Made by a program: the position numbers and the translations under genes
Assembly: GCA_964605735.1 (NCBI GenBank)
Contig: CAZSDS010000001.1
Span: 406,559 to 470,558, forward strand
Direction of reading: 5' to 3'
Source: an uncultured Candidatus Saccharibacteria bacterium
GTDB lineage: Bacteria; Patescibacteriota; Doudnabacteria; UBA920; O2-02-FULL-48-8
Length of the DNA: 64,000 bases
In this document: positions 2,683 to 58,449 of the stretch, in pieces
Position numbering within the stretch: position 1 is the stretch's first letter
Layout of the letters: the number at the start of each line of letters is the position of its first letter
Notes under the pieces: model-generated
Told to the model about the DNA's origin: nothing
The model's database searches: none
The model's input: the letters and a program-made list of their open reading frames with translations, nothing else

Positions 2683-3072
2683 TTAAGTTTTATATTCATC
2701 TTTCCCTAGCACTTCTGCTGGAACAATTTGTGCTTTCACCTTACTTTCACCTAAAATTTTCAACTTGGTTAATCTATGAACGCCGTCTAGAATTACCCAT
2801 CTGTCATTATAATAAGTCACTAATATCGGATAACTGGTATCCGAATTCATTGTACGTTGGTAATGTGTGGCCGAACCCTCAATCTTGTTTATAACATTGT
2901 TCGGTGTAAGGTTCCAATCATCAGTATCATCCTTATCCCAAACCGGCATATCCAAATGCCACTCCAAGTCTTTTACATCAAATTCTTTTACTTCAAGCGG
3001 TAATTGCCTTAACTTAACAGTATCTACATACATGTTAAGCCCGGCATCAGTTATTTCTTTAGGAGCAATCAT
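2683..3072 (-). CDS. ParB-like nuclease domain protein
   Basis: ILDGVHRL motif resembling the ParB/sulfiredoxin-fold DGxHR signature. AT-rich codon usage. 4-nt overlap with the upstream gene. Confidence 0.5.
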   Translation of the reverse strand: MIAPKEITDAGLNMYVDTVKLRQLPLEVKEFDVKDLEWHLDMPVWDKDDTDDWNLTPNNVINKIEGSATHYQRTMNSDTSYPILVTYYNDRWVILDGVHRLTKLKILGESKVKAQIVPAEVLGKDEYKT

Positions 3073-3677
3073 GTATTACGGTTAAAGTTTGCTTTCAATA
3101 AAGAACCTGCATCCACCTGCGACACTAACTTTTCTTCAGATTTCTTTGCTGGCAATATCTCGCGGATTCTTTTCCTGTCAACTTCATTTAAAGTAAAATC
3201 GCCTATATGCAAAATTTTTAAATTAATTGATTTCAATGTCTCATCTATAAACATATCCCTCAAAATTCTCTTTTGAAAACGGTGTGTAAAATCATCAAGC
3301 TCTATGGCTAATAACGGAATCAAATCTGCTTTGCGAAACACTACAAAGTCAATAGTTTTTCTATTTATTTTATTTCTATATGTGTATGTATCCGCAAACT
3401 TGATTGTAGGAGCAACTGTTGCGATGGAACTAACCAAAACCTGTGGAAACACATAATATTCATCCTGTAATAATTTCAAAAGCTTTCGAAAGAAATCCTC
3501 TTCAACTCGAGTCAGAATCCTCTTAGGTACATAGTGTTGAGGATGCAAAATTTGAGCAGGCTGAGCAGGATCATTTTCCTTTTGAACATCGGTAGAATCA
3601 AAATTGTAAGGGGGAATATTCTTGAAAACGAAAGTAAATACAAGGATAAATAGCAATAGAAATAAGATTGCAGACAT
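3069..3677 (-). CDS. DUF2726 domain protein (restriction-endonuclease-like fold) with N-terminal TM anchor
   Basis: N-terminal hydrophobic helix. Motif pattern TRVEEDFFRKL...YVFPQV...IDFVVF is typical of DUF2726. Confidence 0.55.
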   Translation of the reverse strand: MSAILFLLLFILVFTFVFKNIPPYNFDSTDVQKENDPAQPAQILHPQHYVPKRILTRVEEDFFRKLLKLLQDEYYVFPQVLVSSIATVAPTIKFADTYTYRNKINRKTIDFVVFRKADLIPLLAIELDDFTHRFQKRILRDMFIDETLKSINLKILHIGDFTLNEVDRKRIREILPAKKSEEKLVSQVDAGSLLKANFNRNT

Positions 3678-3683
3678 ATTAGA

Positions 3684-5186
3684 TTAAATATCTTCCTTAA
3701 CTTTTACAAAATCATAGCCTTCTTGTTTTGATTTCTCAATGTATTCTTGAATCATATCCAGAGTTTGTTGAGGCGGATAAACTTCGCCTTTCTCAGGGTC
3801 AATTTCATCCCTGCGCAATTCTCTACCCTGGTCAGTCATAGTACCGATATGGAAAATCCTGATCCGGCCATGACCATTGCTGCTTAAAGCTTTTTTAAGC
3901 AGACTTTCGGATTTTAACTTTGTGCTTGGAGGGATGGCAACCACGTCATATGGGTTTCCGTGTATGATCTGAAGATCCATAGCCTGAAACTCACGCAAGC
4001 TATCAGTAGTGCCATGCACTCCTGCAATACGGCCAATCGTCGGCCTTATGCCGCTCACCTGTTCAATCAGCTCAGTTGTTTTCTTCACATCACCTAAATC
4101 CGCGCGCGGACCGATAAAGCGCTTTGCGTATTCTTTTATCCCTGCATTAGGCTTGGCGCCTTCTTGCGCCCATTCATGAACACCAATGTCATGCCCTTCA
4201 TCAATTATTCTTTTGATAATGTGTTCTCGGCCAGGAATAAGTGATCCGACTATAAAAAATGTAGCTTTGGCATTCTGTTCTTTCAGTATGTCTAAAAGTT
4301 TTTCAGTTTCTTCATTCGGACCATCGTCAAAAGTCAGAGCCATGACTTTTTTGCCTTCTTTTTCCAGCTGCTTCATCTTTTCCGGATTCAATTTCCAGTG
4401 GACGTTCTTCCCAGCTACCCATTCCTTGGCCCCGCTTCTTTCCATAGCCCATTCTATTTTTTCAATCAAGCCGCCCAATCCGATCATTTTCAAAGCACGC
4501 AGTTTATCTTGGCTAGGTTCAAACTTGCCTTCGCTTCCCATAACCTGCTTGGCAATTTCCGGGTTCAATCGGAACATGTTCACAATCTGCGTTTGGTTTT
4601 CCTGGGCGGAATGGAGGATGTCTTCCTTGAACTTCTTTGGGTGGAACAGTTCGGAATCTACCCAGCCGTCAGGGATGTCTGCAGAGTGTCTTTCCAGAAA
4701 ACCATTGAGACGTTCCTGGATCTCCAGTAATTTGTTAAGGAAATCCACTGAGAATTCCTGCATGTTCAATTCTTCCAATGCTTTTGCTTTCTGGTTGAAT
4801 TCAGGGTTTGCGAATTTCTGGACTACATAAAAAGACTGGCCTTCCTGGGAGGAGTCAGATGGTTCACCTTCCACGAACATTGCTTTTGGAAAGAGGTCGC
4901 CCAACTCTTCCTGAGCAGTTTCATAGAATTTCTTCAGTCTAACGAATTCCTCGTGGTTCTTGCCACCTTGGTCAAAATATTCTGTGACTGCGTATTCAGG
5001 CTTGTCAAAATCGCGTTCCTGTCCGCCTTCCAGTTCTATAACCGCTGCTGGCTCCCCAAGCTTATGGATATCAAACTCGTGGTTTTCGTGAACTGCTTCC
5101 AAGTCCCTGTTAAATGGATGCAAGTCTTTTGCTTCTTCTGGTATGTATTTCTCTGGGTTCATGTTACTACTGATAATAATTTTCAC
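3684..5186 (-). CDS. polysaccharide deacetylase (NodB homology) domain protein with large acidic N-terminal region and no signal peptide
   Basis: NodB motifs TFDDGP and HEW... with conserved His/Asp in the C-terminal half. N-terminal ~260 aa unassigned. Confidence 0.6.
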   Translation of the reverse strand: MKIIISSNMNPEKYIPEEAKDLHPFNRDLEAVHENHEFDIHKLGEPAAVIELEGGQERDFDKPEYAVTEYFDQGGKNHEEFVRLKKFYETAQEELGDLFPKAMFVEGEPSDSSQEGQSFYVVQKFANPEFNQKAKALEELNMQEFSVDFLNKLLEIQERLNGFLERHSADIPDGWVDSELFHPKKFKEDILHSAQENQTQIVNMFRLNPEIAKQVMGSEGKFEPSQDKLRALKMIGLGGLIEKIEWAMERSGAKEWVAGKNVHWKLNPEKMKQLEKEGKKVMALTFDDGPNEETEKLLDILKEQNAKATFFIVGSLIPGREHIIKRIIDEGHDIGVHEWAQEGAKPNAGIKEYAKRFIGPRADLGDVKKTTELIEQVSGIRPTIGRIAGVHGTTDSLREFQAMDLQIIHGNPYDVVAIPPSTKLKSESLLKKALSSNGHGRIRIFHIGTMTDQGRELRRDEIDPEKGEVYPPQQTLDMIQEYIEKSKQEGYDFVKVKEDI

Positions 5187-5193
5187 ACTCGTA

Positions 5194-6753
5194 CTACTTA
5201 AGTAAGAACCTTCTAAAGTACTCTCTTAACTTTTCATTATGAATATAGACATAGGTTCCATAAATACCACGTGTCAAAAGCGTTTTGTAAATATTGATGA
5301 TATACCTCTTTAGCTCTGCATCATCCCACACAGCTCGCTTTCCATTCGCGTCATAATATTTATCTTTATCAACAATAATTGCCTTTTTAGTTTCATCGTA
5401 ATCAATCTCAGGACCGATTATCACTCCTGCATAATTTAAATCATAACCCTGAATAGTATGAATACAGCCAACTTCATTAACGGCATTCTTGGAATTTACC
5501 CAGTCATGTAAAACACTGTTCCAGAACAGTTTGGTTTCTCCAATTACGATATCTGGAATATTCTTATCTTTTTTTGAGAGCCATGGCCATGCATAACCAG
5601 CAATTACTCGTGAAAGTTTATGCTCAGCATCTTTTTGCTTAATCAACTCTACAAGCTGACCAACACTGTCCAAAATTCTAAAATCATACTGTTGAATTTG
5701 CAGGCCATCAACAGGCAAACCTTCTAAAATGTTATCTATAGCTTTAATGTAGTTATCCCCGCCTTTTATTCTTACCTGAGCCTTTAAACTGTATTCCTTG
5801 CTTTCCAAGGATTTTACGTGTGTCGGAAGAATATCTGTTGGTCTTACAGATTGTTTTTCGTCATAAAATAAGATAATTCTCTTTGCAGAAACTTTAATCC
5901 AATCAAGTTCCGTAGCGTCGCCATTCATCCCCAACAATCTATTTGTTTCATCGAAACTTCTATAGTTTGTTAAATTTCTCCTCTGCCTTAATCTATGCGC
6001 CTCATCAACTATCAAAACATCATATTCCTTTTTCGTGACTTCGTTTGGCCCAATAACCATTGAGGGATTTAACCCTTTAATACTCTGAAAAACTCTCTTT
6101 AATGTTTTTCTTAGGGAGCCCATAGCAACTACCAAGGCAACATTTTTAACTTTTTGCTCAGTGAGTTGTTTTATTAAAAAAGTTGCAAGTATTGTTTTGC
6201 CGGTACCCGGACCTCCATGTATCAAAAAGTACCTATTACCATCTCGCTTCAACTCTTCAAGTATATCTTCTGCAATCTCTAACTGCTCGTTTGTTAAAGT
6301 TTTGTAAGGAGAGTATTTAAATAAATCACTGTTTCTGATTTGTACTAAATCTTTTTCGGCAATATTTGAAAGCTGGAGATCTCGCCAAAGTTGTTCGAAT
6401 TTTCCACTATACTTTTCCTTATCATAGTAGTTATGGTGCTGCAATCCTCCGTTGCTATTTTGTAATAAGTACTTACCGTCAGCGGCCAGATACTCAATTA
6501 ACCAAGCCTCGGCATCTAGTGTTGCTGAAGCATTATATTCTTCATCTGTGATGATATGAATTTTTTCTAAACCTTGTCTATCTGGATTTTTTAAATGATC
6601 CCTAGTTCTTTTATATGCATTTAAAGATTGGCCTACATACAACTCTTTATTGTTTTCAATAATATAAACAACTGGCCAATTATTGCCAAAGTTAAAGTGC
6701 TTTATTTTTTCAGCGCCTTCTTTACTAAAGGAGTAAGTCTTGAATACTGCCAT
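5194..6753 (-). CDS. GIY-YIG nuclease domain fused to DUF2075-type P-loop NTPase (Schlafen/helicase-like ATPase)
   Basis: N-terminal VVYIIEN...LYVGQS...YKRTRDH (GIY-YIG). Walker A HGGPGTGKT and Walker B/DEAH VLIVDEAHRL. Length and C-terminal region typical of DUF2075. Confidence 0.6.
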   Translation of the reverse strand: MAVFKTYSFSKEGAEKIKHFNFGNNWPVVYIIENNKELYVGQSLNAYKRTRDHLKNPDRQGLEKIHIITDEEYNASATLDAEAWLIEYLAADGKYLLQNSNGGLQHHNYYDKEKYSGKFEQLWRDLQLSNIAEKDLVQIRNSDLFKYSPYKTLTNEQLEIAEDILEELKRDGNRYFLIHGGPGTGKTILATFLIKQLTEQKVKNVALVVAMGSLRKTLKRVFQSIKGLNPSMVIGPNEVTKKEYDVLIVDEAHRLRQRRNLTNYRSFDETNRLLGMNGDATELDWIKVSAKRIILFYDEKQSVRPTDILPTHVKSLESKEYSLKAQVRIKGGDNYIKAIDNILEGLPVDGLQIQQYDFRILDSVGQLVELIKQKDAEHKLSRVIAGYAWPWLSKKDKNIPDIVIGETKLFWNSVLHDWVNSKNAVNEVGCIHTIQGYDLNYAGVIIGPEIDYDETKKAIIVDKDKYYDANGKRAVWDDAELKRYIINIYKTLLTRGIYGTYVYIHNEKLREYFRRFLLK

Positions 6754-51648: not shown

Positions 51649-53424
51649 TTATTCAATTGTCGATCCTACAGAATCTATCCTGCTGTCGTTCAAATCAGAA
51701 ACCGTTAACGTGCTAAGCTGGGTTGATTTTATTTCTTTTCCTGTGAAAGTGTCTGTCGCAACTGCTTGGATATCGCGCAGGAGAGTCATGTTCTGGCCGC
51801 GATTGGCCTCAGAAGGAGTGACTTGCAGTTGGAAAGACACGCTTCTGGCCACGGAGAATCTTCCCTGGAAAGCAGGGATGTTCCCCAGTCGCCACCTGAT
51901 CTTGCTGGCGTTCTGGTCAAATGTCAGATGCTGTTTCTCCGCGTCAGGCGCGATTACGTTAATCCAAGCCGAAGCCGGCAAAGGCATGGAAGCCAACAGT
52001 TCGCCGTCAGCCAGATCATTGCTCAAGTTGGTTAAAGTCACGGTAACTTCAAACGTGGTTGACTCCCCGACTTTCATTGGCAAGGCTCCGCTGACGTATC
52101 GGCCGCTGACAGTCATGCCCAACTCTGACTCGACCTTAACAATTTTTTCTTCGCCCCGAATCGGGCTGGTAACCTGGTCTGAGTAAATCGACACCGCTGT
52201 CTTAACTGTTTGGTTCTTGAGATTTGTAGTGATGTTCGGTTTCAAACCAACTGAGAAATCCAAATCCCCGGTTTGGTTTGGCGAAAGCAATGATAAATTG
52301 CTGACTGTGGCAGATTTCCAGGTTATGGTGTTGCCAGTGATTATGCCATTGGTTGAGCGCAGTTTGGTTAAATCCAGACTGGGACCCTCAATAGTGACGG
52401 TAATTACCACGTTGCTTTGGCTGACAGAGCCGTAATTCGCGTATTTGAGCCTGTATTGCATAGTCTCGCCCAATTTCACCACATCTTTGTCTGTGCTGTG
52501 CTGGATGGCCAAACTGGAAGCCTGAAGCTTAAAGCGGGCGGACGCGTGAATCTGAGGCGCCAAACCGCTGTTCAAAACCAATCCCAAGTCCCCGCTGACC
52601 TGCTGTTCAGAACCAGGGTCGCCTATAAAATTACCAGTCACCTCAATTTTTCCGACAGTGTCGACACCCAGCTTTCCCAAACTCCAGTAGTTATTGTCCT
52701 TTGACGGCGCCGGCTCTGCACTGACAAACATAAATCCTTCCGGATAAGCAAGCTGGACCGCGGTGGCATCAAACTCCTTCCCGGACACATTCTTATAATT
52801 GATGGTAAAAGTGGTGTTCTGGCCATTTGTCACGTCAATCGGCCCGGTAATTTCCATTTCAAGCTCAGGCGCAGTCAAAGCAGTCTTGAAACTCGTCTCA
52901 GTAAAAAAATCTGAGCTGAAATTAGACATCCTGAAAGACAACTTACTGCGCAATTCTTTCACTTCACCCGTGGCCCCGCTGACTTTTGCCTTGATTACCA
53001 CCTCTCCGGTCTGGCCCTGCCTTAATACAGGCAAATCAAAACGCTGGCCGTTTGATGAGCTTGGGCTTGGTTCAGCGCTGACGTATTTGAAATTAGACGG
53101 ATAAAAGACCTCCAGGGTTATCCCGGTCAAATCTGAATTCTCGCCGTTTGTATAGACAATGCGAAATTCTGTTTCGTTCCCTGAGGCAATTTGTTCTGGG
53201 CCTTTGATGTTTAATAGAACGTTAGGCGGTTCTACCGTGCCATCTCCCTGGTTGCGCAAAAAATACAGAGTGGCCACTACAACCAAAAGCAAAACCATGG
53301 CAACACTGCTGATCAACAATGCATGGCTTTTGATCCAGTCCCATATTCCTGGTTTGTGTTGGTTGAAATCTTCAGGAAAATCCTGACGCACGCTTTGGTC
53401 TAAAATTCTGTCGTCCATTTCCAT
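51649..53424 (-). CDS. membrane-anchored surface protein with multiple DUF11/CARDB-like beta-sandwich repeats
   Basis: N-terminal TM after a cytoplasmic segment. Repeated ~100-aa modules with V.YTN.G...L...V. Confidence 0.5.
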   Translation of the reverse strand: MEMDDRILDQSVRQDFPEDFNQHKPGIWDWIKSHALLISSVAMVLLLVVVATLYFLRNQGDGTVEPPNVLLNIKGPEQIASGNETEFRIVYTNGENSDLTGITLEVFYPSNFKYVSAEPSPSSSNGQRFDLPVLRQGQTGEVVIKAKVSGATGEVKELRSKLSFRMSNFSSDFFTETSFKTALTAPELEMEITGPIDVTNGQNTTFTINYKNVSGKEFDATAVQLAYPEGFMFVSAEPAPSKDNNYWSLGKLGVDTVGKIEVTGNFIGDPGSEQQVSGDLGLVLNSGLAPQIHASARFKLQASSLAIQHSTDKDVVKLGETMQYRLKYANYGSVSQSNVVITVTIEGPSLDLTKLRSTNGIITGNTITWKSATVSNLSLLSPNQTGDLDFSVGLKPNITTNLKNQTVKTAVSIYSDQVTSPIRGEEKIVKVESELGMTVSGRYVSGALPMKVGESTTFEVTVTLTNLSNDLADGELLASMPLPASAWINVIAPDAEKQHLTFDQNASKIRWRLGNIPAFQGRFSVARSVSFQLQVTPSEANRGQNMTLLRDIQAVATDTFTGKEIKSTQLSTLTVSDLNDSRIDSVGSTIE

Positions 53425-53444
53425 TTTTGTTTCTCCTACTGTTT

Positions 53445-54107
53445 TTACTTTTGTACCGACAGCAGAAACTGCTCGGATTTAATATTTCTTTCCAAAATAT
53501 ATTCAATAAAATTCTTGATCACGGTATGCGACTGTTTGGCCAGGCTTTCATCCAATCCCAGCCCCGGCAAATCTTCATACTGACATTCAGCCAAATCAAT
53601 CAAGGTCCCGTTCAGATTACCCGGCAGATTAAACGCGGCCTGTGCGTGCTCAATAGAAAAACCAAGGCAATTCATCAAGCGCAGGGAAAAACTGTCCACA
53701 GCTACGAACGCAGGCTGTCGGGAAATATCCGAGCTGTTTAAGAACTCAAAAAAATCCGCAAGCAAATCAAAGGCGTCCTCGTTAGGCTGTTCGTCTGCCG
53801 TCATTTTCAGCATCAATTCCGTGGCGTAAAACGCGGCCACGGTTTTGGGTAAATCGTCACGGAGCTTCGGAAAAATTTTTCTGGATTTGGCTGAGATCAG
53901 CGAAGGCAGGCTCCTCTTTCCAGCAACCTCAAAGTCAACCAGGCTCAAATCCTGCATGCTGAAAGCCAGCTTACTCTTTACCAGACGGAGTCCGCGCGCC
54001 ATAACCCTGACTTTCCCAGCCTCCCTGGTCCAAACAGTAACAATCTGATCTGCTTCCCGGTAATTTTGTTTCTTGAGAACGATTCCCGTAAGTTTATTAT
54101 ATTTCAT
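53445..54107 (-). CDS. recO: DNA repair protein RecO
   Basis: N-terminal OB-fold pattern (KLTGIVLKKQNYREADQIVTVWTREAGKVRVMARG) and C-terminal helical domain. Confidence 0.7.
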   Translation of the reverse strand: MKYNKLTGIVLKKQNYREADQIVTVWTREAGKVRVMARGLRLVKSKLAFSMQDLSLVDFEVAGKRSLPSLISAKSRKIFPKLRDDLPKTVAAFYATELMLKMTADEQPNEDAFDLLADFFEFLNSSDISRQPAFVAVDSFSLRLMNCLGFSIEHAQAAFNLPGNLNGTLIDLAECQYEDLPGLGLDESLAKQSHTVIKNFIEYILERNIKSEQFLLSVQK

Positions 54108-54207
54108 CTGCCTTATTGCAACCATGGCGCAGGTCGCCGACCGCCTCTCTCAACGTTTGGCTAATCGCCGACGTTTCGCGAGACGGATCGGCTCCCGCAC
54201 CCAGGTA

Positions 54208-57200
54208 CTATTTTTCAATGGCTAATTTAATAACCTTGCCGTCGAGGCTTACTGGTTCTTCGTTCTCGAGATTTTTGGCTGAAACTTCCTTAACAAAGGT
54301 CTTTTTACGGTCAAAAAGATCCATGGCTTTTGCCAGTTCTTCATCAGAAGTATCATAAGCCAAATTAACCATTTCGCCAACCTTTAAGCCGGACTTTTTG
54401 CGCATATCCTGGACAATTCTTTCAAGGTTGCGGGCCAAGCCTTCCAGCTTCAATTCAGGGCTGATTTCCGTATCCAGATACAGATGCTGGACATACCTGG
54501 TACCGGCATATGTTTTCACAAGCTCACCGGATTGGCTGACAAGCTTATCGTCAACCAACTTTACGTTTACTTCTGAAGCCAGAATTGCGGCCAGTTCGGG
54601 ACTCAATTGCACATCAGCTTTTGTCTGAACTGCCAGTCTTGATAATGGCTGGCGGATAGGCAAACCCAATTCTTTTCTCGCGTTTAAGGCAACACTGGCC
54701 GCTTCCCGGACAGCTTCCATTGCCGCGAGCAGTTCAGTTTCATCTGCGGACAAAGTCCTGGTCTCCGGCCATACTGCCAAGTGCACAGACTCTGCGTCAT
54801 TTTCCTGCCTCAGAACCTGCCAGATGTTTTCTGCCAGAAACGGCGTAAACGGCGCCATAAGCAAGCTCAGGGTCTTCAATACCTTATACAGGGTTTGATA
54901 AACTGCCGGACCTTTGCGTTCGCGGGAGCGGCGGACATACCAGGTGGAAAGCTCATTGATGAAATCTTCAATGCTCCTGGACGCTCGGAATGCGTCAAAA
55001 TTATCCAAGCTTTCAGTCACTGAGTTAACCAGCTCCTGCGTCTTTGCCAAGATCCACTGATCCAACACATCCAAAGCATCAGTTTCTTTCTCTGACGGTG
55101 TCCATTTATCAAAACTCGAGTAAGTCACAAAGAAGCTGAGCACGTTCCACAATGTCAGGAAATTCTTGCGTACAATCAGATCAAGGTCGCGCTCTGCAAA
55201 CAATTTGGAATCGCCGGGCTGGTTGATCGAATACATATACCAGCGCACTGCATCCACTCCCTGCTTGTTCATCGGTTCCCAAGGATCAATGATGTTGCCT
55301 TTGGACTTGCTCATCTTTAAACCTTTTTCGTCAAGCAAGTGCCCCAGACAGATGACGTGCTTGTATGCAGGGCCTTTGCCTAAGATGGTTGAAATGGCCA
55401 GCAGAGTATAAAACCAACCCCGAGTCTGGTCAATTGCCTCTGAAATGAAATCAGCCGGAAACTGCTGGCGGGCCAGGTTGGCATTTTCAAACGGGGCGTG
55501 CCATTGGGCGTACGGCATGGCGCCTGAATCAAACCACACATCCAAGACAGACGGCACGCGCTTGGAATCATTGCCACAATAAGGACATGGCAAAACCACT
55601 TCGTCAATGTAAGGGCGATGCAAATCAGTAAGGCCTAGCTCTATTTGGGTAAACTCCCCCACCTGCGGATAATGGTTGGCAACATCATAGTACTGGTTCA
55701 TCAACCAAATGACATCTCCGTGCGTCACCAGCAAAATCTTCTTGCCGTTGTGCTTGGAATTCAGTTCGCTGACAAAATCAAGCATGCGGGTCTGAAGATC
55801 CATATAGGATTCCCCGCCCTCTGGCGCCTCCTGCCATCTTCTCTGCACTGGCCAGTCTTTATGGTACTCTTCCAATTTTTTGCCGTTGTACACGCCAGTA
55901 TTGAATTCCCTTAATCGCGGGTCAAATTGGACTTCAACTCCCAAAATCTTTCCTGCAATTTCAGCAGTTTGCTTGGTTCTCACCAAATCAGAGGCAAAAA
56001 TCATATCCACACCACCTAATGCTTTGATTTTTTCACCCAGTTCATGAGCTTGTTTTTCACCTAGTTCGGTCAGTGGCATTGGCGTGGTTTCCGGATAATG
56101 CATATGGATTCCCTGCACCACGTTTTGCGCCTCACCGTGCCGGGCAATATAAAAGTGGTTTTTGTTCAGCTTCAGCTCATCAACACTGCCGATTATCTGG
56201 TGTTTTTTGCAGTGTTCGCATTTCCAAATCGGCAGAGGTGTGCCCCAGTATCTTTCGCGGGAAATTGCCCAATCCTTGATCTCTGCCAGCCAATTTCCAA
56301 AACGGCCATATTTAATGTGGCTTGGATTCCAGGTAATTTGTTCATTGTTTTTGATCAGGTCTTCGCGCAGCTGGCTCATTTTTATAAACCAGGATTCGCG
56401 GGCGTAATACAACAGCGGGGTGTCACAGCGCCAGCAATGCGGATATTCGTGCTCATACTTCTCTTTTCTTGCGAAATTTCCGTGCGACTTCAGGTGGCCG
56501 AAAATTTTGCCTTCCGTGGCTTCGTCCTTTACATACATTCCGGCCAGTTCTTTGACTTCAGGCACAAATAATCCGGCATCATTAACCGTATGGATTTTCG
56601 GCAGGCCGACTTTTTCTCCCAACTGGTAATCGTCCTCACCATAAACCACTGCTGTGTGCACTACTCCGGTTCCGTCTGTGGTTGTGACAAAGTCAGCGTC
56701 ATAGATTTTATATGACTGCGGCGTTTTCAGGAATTCCACTTCAAACAGCGGTTCGTATTCCAGGCCAAGCAGGTCTTTGCCCTTCATGCTGGCAACCACC
56801 TCCGGGTTTTCACCTGCAGCTTCCAATCTTTCCTTGGCTAAAATCCAAAACTCATCTCCAACTTTGACTTTTGCGTATTCAATGTCTTTGCCTACGGCCA
56901 AGGCCACGTTCCCCGGCAAGGTCCACGGCGTGGTGGTCCAGGACAGGATGTAGGTATTTTCCTGGTTTTTTAGTTTAAATTTTACGTAAACCGAGTTGTC
57001 TTTTACGGTTTTGTATCCTTGAGCCACCTCATGCGAAGAAAGCGCGGTGCCGCAGCGAGTGCAGTAAGGCAGAACTTTGTGGCCGAGATAAACCAGATCT
57101 TTGTCCCAAGCCTGCTTGAGAATATTCCAGATGGATTCAATGTACTTGTTGTGGTAAGTGATGTACGGGTTTTTCATGTCCACCCAGTAACCCATGCGGT

Positions 57201-57624
57201 GGGTCAGCTTTTCCCAATCATCCTTGTATTCCCAGACAGACTGTTTGCACAAACGGTTGAATTCAATGATTGACTCGCGGACAGTCGGGCGGATGGATTC
57301 AATCTGTTTTTTTCCGGAAATCTGGAGTTTTTTTTCAATTTGAAGCTCAACAGGCAAACCGTGCGTATCCCAGCCAGCTTTTCTGTTTACAAATCTGCCA
57401 CGCATTGTCTGGTAACGAGGAATCAGATCCTTGAAGGCACGGGCTTCCACGTGGTGCAGTGCTGGTTTGGCGTTGGCAGTTGGAGGGCCTTCGAAAAAGA
57501 CAAAAGGTTTGCCATCTTTGGTTTGTTCCAGGCTTTTTTCAAAAATTTTGTTGTCTTCCCAGAACTTAAGGACGTTTTCTTCCATCTCCGGAAAGTTGGG
57601 TTTTGGATTAAATTCTTTGTTCAT
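54208..57624 (-). CDS. ileS: isoleucine--tRNA ligase carrying an inserted histidine-phosphatase (phosphoglycerate-mutase-like) domain
   Basis: HIGH-type (PTANAKPALHH) and KMSKS motifs, CP1 editing domain, type-2-like C-terminus. Start taken at MNKEFNPKP. Listed ORF extends to 57678. Confidence 0.9.
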   Translation of the reverse strand: MNKEFNPKPNFPEMEENVLKFWEDNKIFEKSLEQTKDGKPFVFFEGPPTANAKPALHHVEARAFKDLIPRYQTMRGRFVNRKAGWDTHGLPVELQIEKKLQISGKKQIESIRPTVRESIIEFNRLCKQSVWEYKDDWEKLTHRMGYWVDMKNPYITYHNKYIESIWNILKQAWDKDLVYLGHKVLPYCTRCGTALSSHEVAQGYKTVKDNSVYVKFKLKNQENTYILSWTTTPWTLPGNVALAVGKDIEYAKVKVGDEFWILAKERLEAAGENPEVVASMKGKDLLGLEYEPLFEVEFLKTPQSYKIYDADFVTTTDGTGVVHTAVVYGEDDYQLGEKVGLPKIHTVNDAGLFVPEVKELAGMYVKDEATEGKIFGHLKSHGNFARKEKYEHEYPHCWRCDTPLLYYARESWFIKMSQLREDLIKNNEQITWNPSHIKYGRFGNWLAEIKDWAISRERYWGTPLPIWKCEHCKKHQIIGSVDELKLNKNHFYIARHGEAQNVVQGIHMHYPETTPMPLTELGEKQAHELGEKIKALGGVDMIFASDLVRTKQTAEIAGKILGVEVQFDPRLREFNTGVYNGKKLEEYHKDWPVQRRWQEAPEGGESYMDLQTRMLDFVSELNSKHNGKKILLVTHGDVIWLMNQYYDVANHYPQVGEFTQIELGLTDLHRPYIDEVVLPCPYCGNDSKRVPSVLDVWFDSGAMPYAQWHAPFENANLARQQFPADFISEAIDQTRGWFYTLLAISTILGKGPAYKHVICLGHLLDEKGLKMSKSKGNIIDPWEPMNKQGVDAVRWYMYSINQPGDSKLFAERDLDLIVRKNFLTLWNVLSFFVTYSSFDKWTPSEKETDALDVLDQWILAKTQELVNSVTESLDNFDAFRASRSIEDFINELSTWYVRRSRERKGPAVYQTLYKVLKTLSLLMAPFTPFLAENIWQVLRQENDAESVHLAVWPETRTLSADETELLAAMEAVREAASVALNARKELGLPIRQPLSRLAVQTKADVQLSPELAAILASEVNVKLVDDKLVSQSGELVKTYAGTRYVQHLYLDTEISPELKLEGLARNLERIVQDMRKKSGLKVGEMVNLAYDTSDEELAKAMDLFDRKKTFVKEVSAKNLENEEPVSLDGKVIKLAIEK
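55618..56157 (-). other. Histidine phosphatase superfamily (branch 1, PGM/SixA-like) domain inserted inside IleRS between the WKCEHC and CPYCGN zinc-knuckle halves
   Basis: IARHGEAQ (RHGE catalytic motif) ... LTELGEKQAHELG ... FASDLVRTKQTAEI ... DPRLREFNTG ... PEGGESYMDL ... ILLVTHGDVIWLM: all hallmark blocks of the histidine phosphatase fold, in-frame within ileS. Confidence 0.7.
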
Positions 57625-57640
57625 ACTTCCCTTATCTTTG

Positions 57641-57697
57641 GGGAGCAGGTCGTTCCGCTCGGCGCACGCTAATCGCAAGCACCTCGCCGGAACGAAC
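57641..57697 (-). promoter_or_regulatory. Long imperfect hairpin (~21 bp stem) immediately upstream of the ileS RBS
   Basis: GGGAGCAGGTCGTTCCGCTCGGCG ... CGCCGGAACGAACCTGCTCCC. Ends about 10 nt before AAGGGAAGT-ATG. Confidence 0.5.
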
Positions 57698-57961
57698 CTG
57701 CTCCCACACCAATTGCTAAATAAATAATTTAATAAAAACTTTTAAGGCACCTTGAGCTAACTGTGTAAAATAAAAAAGCCTGTTGCTTGCGATCCCTTGA
57801 ACTAAGGGAGGTGCCATCGCAATTCCAAAAAAGGCTCTCGCTTATGCTTTTTTACGTTAAGCGCAACGGGCAGGTCTACTTATTTCTTCTGCCAGCTCCC
57901 TTTTGGGATTCCGGTTGATAGCCGGTCTGCCTCGCCAGAGGCAAGCTTTTTGAATGCCTAA

Positions 57962-57990
57962 ATTATACCACAAATCCCAAAATCTGTTAA
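57962..57990 (-). promoter_or_regulatory. ileS promoter (near-consensus, extended -10)
   Basis: Minus strand: TTAACA, 17 nt, TGGTATAAT. Gives a ~330-nt untranslated leader. Confidence 0.55.
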
Positions 57991-57993
57991 ACT

Positions 57994-58449
57994 TTGTATA
58001 TGCCAAGTCTAGCCTCCAACAAAAAAGCTTTCCACACCTACTCTATTGAAGATTCTCTAGAGGCTGGCATTGTCTTGGAAGGACCAGAGGTGAAAAGCGC
58101 AAGAAATGGCCAAGTCAGTTTAAGTGGCGCTTACGTGACCATCAAAGGCGGCGAAGCCTATTTAAAGAATGCCTTTATCGCCAAATACAAAAATGCACCA
58201 CAACAAGAGCTATATAATGAATACCGCGACCGCAAACTTCTTCTCCACAAAGACCAGATATCAAAGCTGGCACACCGGCTGGATGAAAAAGGCACAGCAA
58301 TTGTTCCGCTTGAAATTTACACCAGCAAACGGCGGATTAAAGTGAAAATTGCAGTTGGAAAAGGTAAAAAGCAATTCGACAAACGCGCAACCATTAAAGA
58401 AAAAGAATCCAAACGAAAAATTGATCGAACCTTGCGCCAAAGAGTCTAA
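57994..58449 (+). CDS. smpB: SsrA-binding protein
   Basis: SmpB signature (KSARNGQVSLSGAYVTIKGGEAYL...KLLLHKDQISKL...GKGKKQFDKR). Confidence 0.9.
   Translation: MYMPSLASNKKAFHTYSIEDSLEAGIVLEGPEVKSARNGQVSLSGAYVTIKGGEAYLKNAFIAKYKNAPQQELYNEYRDRKLLLHKDQISKLAHRLDEKGTAIVPLEIYTSKRRIKVKIAVGKGKKQFDKRATIKEKESKRKIDRTLRQRV

Follow-up and report, generated by a model that had tools for sequence, protein, structure and literature searches.

Why should an isoleucyl-tRNA synthetase (IleRS) carry a second enzyme inside its catalytic body? The question is raised by a locus within a 64,000-nucleotide stretch of DNA (hereafter "the window"; assembly GCA_964605735.1, contig CAZSDS010000001.1, positions 406,559 to 470,558) from an uncultured Candidatus Saccharibacteria bacterium, which GTDB places in the Doudnabacteria of the Patescibacteriota. 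The ileS gene of this window (54208..57624, minus strand) encodes a 1138-residue type-2 IleRS with a nested histidine phosphatase domain. Aminoacyl-tRNA synthetases are among the best-studied enzymes, and their accessory domains have revealed editing, signaling, and antibiotic resistance. The Candidate Phyla Radiation (CPR) accounts for a large share of bacterial diversity and is characterized by minimal genomes that retain hardly anything superfluous. A first-pass annotation had described the protein as an unusual chimera, in which a "PGM-like" domain might either dephosphorylate a nucleotide or alarmone or represent a degenerate mobile insertion. The analysis presented here leads to a different picture, in which the nested domain is best understood as a long-standing and probably active partner of IleRS.

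The inserted domain comprises residues 487-666 (55627..56166, minus strand) and is situated in the second zinc knuckle, between the cysteine pairs C469-x2-C472 and C680-x2-C683. It has no counterpart in solved IleRS enzymes. In an alignment with the type-2 structure 8c8w, residues 3-491 of the query correspond to residues 2-481 of the chain, and residues 667-1044 to residues 487-872. Because the protein can be aligned on both sides, it follows that about 175 residues stand where solved IleRS has about five, and that these residues are not the normal connective-peptide sequence of a type-2 enzyme. Pfam assigns residues 492-644 (nt 55693-56151) to His_Phos_1 (PF00300) with an E-value of 2.6e-37 and 128.8 bits, against a threshold of 21.7; the 180-residue segment that the first-pass annotation had delimited (55618-56157) reaches 133.8 bits when scored alone, far over the same threshold. 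All motifs quoted in that annotation were recovered in frame: WKCEHCKK (starting at residue 467), RHGE (495), LVRTKQT (547), GGES (603), THGDVI (634), and CPYCGN (680), as well as LTELGEKQAHELG, which was listed between RHGE and LVRTKQT. The strand had been left unstated, and the coordinates fit a gene on the minus strand.

Structure prediction points in the same direction. The AlphaFold model of the insert alone has a predicted local distance difference test score (pLDDT) of 96.1, and the AlphaFold2 model of the whole protein, based on a 66-sequence alignment, reaches a pLDDT of 91.6 and a predicted template modeling (TM) score of 0.80, with pLDDT values of 84-96 over the insert. Foldseek places the isolated domain close to the glucosyl-3-phosphoglycerate phosphatase GpgP (Rv2419c), PhoE, PspA, TIGAR, and CobC (TM 0.74-0.81). 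Similarly, a profile built from 35 inserts and compared with the sequences of the PDB identified PhoE as the best match (1ebb/1h2e, E = 5e-35), followed by PspA and CobC. A complete branch-1 histidine phosphatase fold between the halves of the second knuckle of a type-2 IleRS, as originally proposed, is thus supported by Pfam, by the alignment with 8c8w, and by the AlphaFold models alike.

The catalytic set of the fold is complete. It consists of R495 and H496 of the RHG motif (56137..56142), identified by translation and invariance, and of three residues identified by their invariance: R549 in the motif SDLxRTxQTA (55978..55980), E605 of the GGES block (55810..55812), and H635 of THGD (55720..55722), all encoded on the minus strand. 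H496 is predicted to be the nucleophile that accepts the phosphate, R549 would be the second arginine to bind it, E605 the predicted proton donor, and H635 the second catalytic histidine; these roles, including that of R495, are taken by us from the established mechanism of the superfamily. The insert scores below the cut-offs of the models for cofactor-dependent phosphoglycerate mutase (dPGM; TIGR01258, 17.3 vs. 81.7 bits; NF038349, 78.8 vs. 225; NF002339, 32 vs. 316), of the models for the alpha-ribazole phosphatase CobC (TIGR03162, 90.3 vs. 162.9; PRK15004, 65.3 vs. 250), and of the models for PspA (NF045917, 63.1 vs. 350) and SixA (TIGR00249, 27.1 vs. 74.5). From the Foldseek, PDB profile, and NCBIfam results it follows that the insert is a compact, phosphatase-type member of branch 1 and not a recognizable mutase; judged by sequence and model, it is of the PhoE/PspA/CobC/GpgP-like phosphomonoesterase type. 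The earlier label "PGM-like" holds only at the level of the fold. The observation lies well outside chance expectation, and that a bona fide, selected phosphatase fold resides within this IleRS can be regarded as practically certain.

The architecture is not confined to the window. Among the 120 best database matches of the whole protein, which show 47-100% identity, the insert is found at the same site in 112, and the cysteine pairs of the second knuckle are separated by 205-250 residues in its presence vs. 26-57 residues in the eight insert-free relatives. The names of the source organisms include Candidatus Doudnabacteria, Paceibacterota, Pacebacteria, and Patescibacteria group, and the nearest named relative (76% identity) is labeled Candidatus Doudnabacteria. 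The taxon labels of several records (Binatia, Burkholderiales, Acidobacteriaceae) are implausible and suggest that contigs of Patescibacteria were binned wrongly. In a genome scan, each GTDB species was represented by one genome and a single peptide motif, [VI]SHGDPLW[LVI], derived from a subset of 10 insert sequences, was used as the query. The scan confirmed at least 251 loci in species-representative genomes; as a consequence of the single pattern, this number is a lower bound and biased toward the "SHGDPLW" variant. The locus-level analysis of the scan rests on 80 of these 251 loci, which are named Paceibacterota, Colwell-, Lipton-, Uhr-, Nealson-, Azam-, Niyogi-, Harrison-, and Wildermuthbacteria, Spechtbacterales, Minisyncoccota, and Parcubacteria, in addition to generic labels. 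In every one of the 80 loci, the phosphatase is either embedded in IleRS or encoded adjacent to it, and none lies away from ileS. The same architecture is present in hundreds of independent assemblies (NCBI, JGI, ENA, Logan). The inserted form is the usual IleRS in a large part of Patescibacteria (CPR) and constitutes a lineage-wide trait. What had been taken for an unusual chimera is accordingly widespread, being shared by 112 of the 120 nearest relatives and by 251 species-representative genomes through one motif variant alone.

The constraint acting on the domain is most apparent at its catalytic positions. All 112 inserts share R495, H496, R549, E605, and H635, and the R-H-R-E-H set is present without change in each of the 185 family domains, inserted or stand-alone, that were aligned. 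The sole exception seen concerns a variant with two domains, one copy of which has Q in the place of E. The mean pairwise identity amounts to 61% for the IleRS core and to 39% for the insert, so that the insert is less constrained overall than the core; the core and insert identities are correlated (r = 0.75). The insert thus co-diverges with the IleRS core, with its catalytic apparatus wholly kept. The GC content of the insert (0.44-0.51) matches that of both flanks, there are no flanking repeats beyond short ones at chance level, and Pfam detects no intein or homing-endonuclease domain in the ileS product. The proposal of a degenerate mobile insertion is contradicted by the invariance of the catalytic residues in 185 of 185 domains, by the co-divergence with the core, by the absence of flanking repeats and of a compositional shift, and by the survival of the domain as an intact, separate gene beside ileS.

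This separate form is found in 11 of the 80 genome loci, where a stand-alone phosphatase of 190-216 residues is encoded; in all 11, an insert-free ileS follows directly downstream on the same strand, with, for example, a 4-nt gap in locus L027 and an 8-nt overlap in locus L070. A second sample of six stand-alone homologues on long contigs, taken from a family of 621 database matches, revealed the same arrangement in six of six cases, with gaps of -4 to +41 nt and with rplT-rpmI-infC, smpB, argS - phosphatase - ileS - recO as the usual context. Overall, 17 of 17 stand-alone genes adjoin an insert-free ileS on its upstream side and on the same strand, at distances of -8 to +41 nt. The stand-alone phosphatases are very basic proteins (isoelectric point of about 10, net charge of about +19), and this charge was considered as a sign of RNA binding. 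Inserts in equally AT-rich genomes are as basic, however, and the idea was rejected in favor of a compositional effect, since net charge tracks genome GC (r = -0.73). In the IleRS of the main split-form clade (ileS of L027, L039, L041, L059, L067, L078, L087, L088, and others), KMSKS is replaced by EMHKS, "DLHRPY" by "PHRPW", and "DVWFD" by "NPWLD"; the catalytic core of this enzyme is unusually divergent, although it is apparently the sole IleRS.

A further form lacks the phosphatase altogether. The eight insert-free relatives nest within insert-bearing clades, seven of them as one clade and P0031 on its own, and their loci keep the synteny of the window (smpB, ileS - recO - CLIPPER/DUF11 protein). 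No phosphatase gene is located upstream of or near the insert-free ileS in the window's own clade (P0058, P0033, and P0031 loci). Because the synteny is otherwise the same and no phosphatase gene is present there, these three cases can be considered as plain loss. In P0031, the knuckle reads "...ELA|DLHRPY", which corresponds to a clean excision. The clean deletions in some lineages indicate that the insert is dispensable for IleRS and represents an accessory module.

In the opposite direction, proteins with more than one phosphatase unit were identified when 1.84 billion cluster representatives were searched exhaustively with phmmer and the matches classified by BLAST and Pfam. Two tandem His_Phos_1 domains occupy the IleRS knuckle in P0220, P0149, and P0238, and in P0123, P0197, and P0192 a second His_Phos_1 domain is located at another site of IleRS, just before the anticodon-binding domain. 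The 1161-residue P0124 comprises the N-terminal part of IleRS (to about residue 420) followed by four His_Phos_1 units, without the C-terminal part of IleRS, and may reflect either a gene call that was cut short or an insert that has expanded strongly. Free tandem di-domain phosphatases were also found in this set. Phosphatase copies within one IleRS are only 22-28% identical to each other and are thus distinct paralogues rather than recent duplicates. Two fusions to other partners were recorded: P0128 (689 residues) carries the phosphatase at the C-terminus of arginyl-tRNA synthetase (ArgRS), whose gene, argS, is the upstream neighbor in split loci, and P0235 (579 residues) is a fusion with QueC, which acts in the synthesis of the precursor of the tRNA modification queuosine.

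The direction of change between the inserted and the split form was addressed with neighbor-joining trees of the IleRS core, rooted with Priestia megaterium IleRS2 (sequence taken from the alignment with 8c8w), and of the phosphatase, rooted with PhoE. In both trees the split forms nest among the inserted ones, which take the basal position, and Fitch parsimony assigns the inserted state to the root in 59 of 60 bootstraps, with three to four changes to the split state. Given the neighbor-joining method, the short internal branches, and the divergent IleRS (EMHKS) of the main split clade, the inserted form is favored, though not established, as the ancestral state and the split form as the derived one, with one to four fission events. 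If ileS had been duplicated in tandem and the copies had then undergone complementary deletions, exactly the observed same-strand adjacency would result. The pairing is best explained as an old trait that a large part of Patescibacteria has passed on mainly by vertical inheritance.

What, then, does the phosphatase do? The intact catalytic set under purifying selection, the phosphatase-type fold, and an association that has survived fusion, duplication, re-insertion, and fission argue for an active phosphomonoesterase that is functionally partnered with IleRS, and we consider this explanation probable, if far from assured. A functional link, for which the comparative evidence is strong, is further supported by the repeated recruitment of paralogues, in tandem or at a second site, all of them catalytically intact except for the single E to Q exchange. 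According to the standard mechanism of the superfamily, phosphomonoester hydrolysis would proceed through a phospho-His496 intermediate, in which the phosphate would be held by R495, R549, and H635 while E605 would serve as acid/base. The phosphatase would be physically tethered to or co-translated with IleRS rather than being an unrelated passenger. Its position beside the strand leading into DVWFDSG suggests, at low confidence, that the substrate could be a nucleotide-borne or tRNA-end phosphate arising at or near the aminoacylation site; the suggestion is a tentative one, as we know of no such step in IleRS. A more specific version holds that the phosphatase performs an unrecognized catalytic step coupled to isoleucine charging in CPR bacteria, either by clearing a blocking 2'/3'-phosphate from the acceptor end of tRNAIle or by hydrolyzing a nucleotide by-product or inhibitor at the synthetic site, with IleRS and phosphatase forming one machine, be it a nested fusion or a translationally coupled two-protein complex. 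We regard this version as unlikely; if true, it would represent a new kind of synthetase-linked repair or quality-control activity.

Several observations weigh against a functional partnership. None of the curated, substrate-specific NCBIfam models (dPGM, CobC, PspA, SixA) reaches its cut-off, the insert evolves faster than the core, and it was cleanly deleted in at least two lineages without an adjacent phosphatase gene. To our knowledge, the IleRS reaction involves no phosphomonoester substrate or product other than AMP and the tRNA 5' end, and no histidine phosphatase is known to us that acts on tRNA. The trees are of the neighbor-joining type only, with short internal branches, and if the split form did arise by tandem duplication and complementary loss, its adjacency to ileS could be a historical by-product rather than a sign of coupling. 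The main rival explanation is a hitch-hiking housekeeping phosphatase, i.e., an active enzyme with a role unrelated to charging, for example in central or salvage metabolism, that landed once in a permissive surface loop of the essential and constitutively expressed ileS and was kept for the need of the cell, not that of IleRS, with the split adjacency as a relic of duplication and deletion. The insertion site is indeed a naturally variable loop, as seen from its 26-57 residues in insert-free relatives, the domain is similar to metabolic phosphatases of broad specificity, several lineages have an IleRS that works without it, and the ArgRS fusion P0128 looks like a simple read-through between neighboring genes; an ancestral inserted state, as obtained in 59 of 60 bootstraps, is also what fission by duplication and loss predicts, same-strand adjacency included. 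Chance insertion is, however, not an easy explanation for the recruitment of different His_Phos_1 paralogues, repeatedly and at two sites. Moreover, adjacency was retained in all 17 split loci, with stop and start codons that overlap or nearly abut even where the upstream neighbors have changed (L070), and the family never occurs away from ileS among the 80 genome loci kept. An unrelated housekeeping role is consequently regarded as possible but doubtful.

The fold might instead act mainly as a binding site for a phosphorylated ligand, be it a metabolite, a nucleotide, or a phosphate of tRNA, and thereby tune IleRS activity or tRNA binding, with turnover being secondary or absent. Conserved residues in the phosphate pocket would be expected of a pure binder as well, the presence of two to four copies per protein (P0220, P0123, P0124) is more typical of binders than of metabolic enzymes, and the site is adjacent in sequence to the DVWFDSG strand of the active site. 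Pure binders of the histidine phosphatase superfamily usually lose some of the residues required for turnover, namely the proton-donor glutamate and the two histidines, whereas in the present family all three are invariant. There is also no consistent basic surface, given that net charge follows genome GC with the correlation stated above and amounts to -7 for the insert of the window, and the stand-alone forms are, by profile, ordinary single-domain enzymes. A ligand-sensing role is therefore thought to be quite improbable. Still less can be said for an artifact or a selfish element, whether a chimeric assembly, a mobile or intein-like insertion, or a functionless, decaying remnant. Nothing positive speaks for this explanation, and it has to contend with an architecture shared by hundreds of independent assemblies, an intact reading frame, a confident structural model, and invariant catalytic residues, with the lack of intein or endonuclease domains, flanking repeats, and a GC shift, and with a distribution that follows lineages and an insert that co-diverges with the core. 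Its likelihood is taken to be close to nil.

An active phosphatase partnered with IleRS would mean that a second, apparently active enzyme resides inside the catalytic body of IleRS across much of CPR. Partners that stay together whether they are fused, duplicated, re-inserted, or separated into adjacent genes show the classic mark of a functional link, yet a phosphatase is not known to be needed at any step of isoleucine charging. The identity of the substrate could thus reveal an unknown requirement of translation or of the nucleotide economy in these symbiotic bacteria. Natural controls exist in the insert-free, split, and double-insert forms, and the system lends itself to direct tests on recombinant proteins. 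On the practical side, the sole IleRS of these genomes is under-annotated: insert-bearing proteins are named "class I tRNA ligase family protein" at NCBI, and insert-free relatives "isoleucine--tRNA ligase", and it seems to be the insert that causes this difference.

The host enzyme itself displays the features expected of a type-2 IleRS. The open reading frame (ORF) spans 57678..54208 on the minus strand when read from a TTG codon, which lies 18 codons upstream of an in-frame ATG at 57624 (57625-57678, minus strand). The ATG, from which the 1138-residue protein is read, is the likelier start because homologues align from it (MNKEF...); the stop codon occupies 54208-54210. The NCBIfam model TIGR00392 (ileS) matches the whole protein with 886.3 bits (cut-off 621.4) in two stretches with the insert between them, and the Pfam domains tRNA-synt_1, Anticodon_1 (residues 855-995), and DUF5915 (1013-1138) surround His_Phos_1. 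The best solved relatives are P. megaterium IleRS2 (8c8u/8c8v/8c8w) and the Thermus thermophilus enzyme (1ile). Foldseek searches with the whole model retrieved the same structures (TMt 0.79-0.88) and the yeast enzyme 8wnd, and none of these IleRS structures contains a comparable insert.

The N-terminal part of IleRS (residues 1-486; 56167..57624, minus strand), which aligns to residues 2-481 of 8c8w, includes the first half of the Rossmann fold, the first zinc knuckle, the connective peptide 1 (CP1) editing domain, the WGTPLPIW strand, and the first cysteine pair of the second knuckle. The first zinc knuckle is formed by CTRC (57052-57063; C188/C191) and CWRC (56425-56436; C397/C400), and the CP1 domain enclosed by them (residues 192-396) matches structures of isolated editing domains (1wk8 and 1wny). 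At the position of the class I signature, the sequence reads ALHH (57451..57462), of the A/GXHH type in place of HXGH; the family consensus at this position is GIHH, and the A/GXHH type is found in most of the Patescibacteria IleRS sampled. In IleRS2, this variant is reported to confer mupirocin hyper-resistance and to occur in functional enzymes (PMC10485003). The second zinc knuckle consists of C469-E-H-C472 (56209..56220) and C680-P-Y-C683 (55576..55587), the latter following the conserved DLHRPYID, and all four of its cysteines are kept in 114 of the 120 relatives. The C-terminal part (residues 667-1138; 54211..55626) aligns to residues 487-872 of 8c8w and beyond, and contains the DVWFDSG strand, KMSKS (residues 770-774; 55303-55317), the anticodon-binding domain, and the type-2 C-terminal domain. 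All of these elements were located on the minus strand, the motifs by translation, supplemented by alignment for the second cysteine pair and by Pfam for the C-terminal part. With TIGR00392 above its cut-off and KMSKS, the A/GXHH motif, and all zinc cysteines present, the IleRS core looks functional, and by every feature that can be tested in the sequence the host enzyme is a type-2 IleRS.

The genomic context of ileS is shared among very divergent Patescibacteria as a synteny block of smpB, (argS) - ileS - (small ORF) - recO - large CLIPPER/DUF11-repeat protein (51649-58449 in the window; L081, L084-L090 elsewhere). In the window, the block contains no argS between smpB and ileS. No regulatory RNA was detected in the ileS leader, and the Rfam families found in the window are two tRNAs only. 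In L070, the region directly upstream of phosphatase-ileS (3070-5950) encodes a Schlafen-like helicase fused to GIY-YIG and S24 peptidase domains together with an Mrr-type restriction endonuclease, and this defense-like pair stands where argS is usually located. Upstream of the insert-free ileS in L082 (1459-3505) and L083 (212-2258) lie an rve-family integrase, indicative of an insertion sequence element, and a small gene matching bAvd/23S_rRNA_IVP, a family associated with diversity-generating retroelements.

Nothing retrieved in a literature search links a histidine phosphatase or PGM domain to IleRS, or to any other synthetase, in Patescibacteria, and recent papers on the phylogeny and structure of IleRS, PMC10485003 among them, make no mention of a phosphatase insert. 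What is new is the recognition and interpretation rather than the sequences, as automated Pfam annotation of these proteins already exists in databases. In its fold, domain order, two zinc knuckles, CP1, KMSKS, and DUF5915, the window protein resembles the eukaryote-like, mupirocin-resistant type-2 IleRS (8c8u/8c8v/8c8w, 1ile), but it differs from all solved or described members by the enzyme domain in its second zinc knuckle. This domain, in turn, shares the compact fold of about 180-200 residues and the R-H-R-E-H set with PhoE/YhfR of Geobacillus stearothermophilus (1ebb, 1h2e), the phosphoserine phosphatase PspA (4ij5), the alpha-ribazole phosphatase CobC (6nru, 6e4b), and the glucosyl-3-phosphoglycerate phosphatase Rv2419c (4pz9, 6s2q). 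In contrast to these free-standing enzymes, to which it is only 25-30% identical, it is nested in, or encoded directly upstream of, another enzyme.

Covalent linkage of a histidine phosphatase to an enzyme of nucleic acid or nucleotide metabolism is known from mycobacterial Rv2228c (RNase HI and a CobC-like acid phosphatase; NF005567) and MutT1 (Nudix and histidine phosphatase; NF052459). These are end-to-end fusions with other partner enzymes, whereas the domain of the window is nested. With 86 bits to NF005567 (cut-off 326) and 21 bits to NF052459 (cut-off 475), the insert scores far below the cut-offs, and the two proteins can therefore serve as an analogy only. A precedent for an extra enzyme domain on IleRS itself, complete with a curated model, is provided by the IleRS with N-acetyltransferase domain described by NF040702; there, the additional domain belongs to GNAT, and the window protein, with 334 bits vs. 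a cut-off of 1999, is not a member of this family. Seen alongside these systems, the nested two-enzyme architecture is a variant on the known theme of synthetases with accessory domains.

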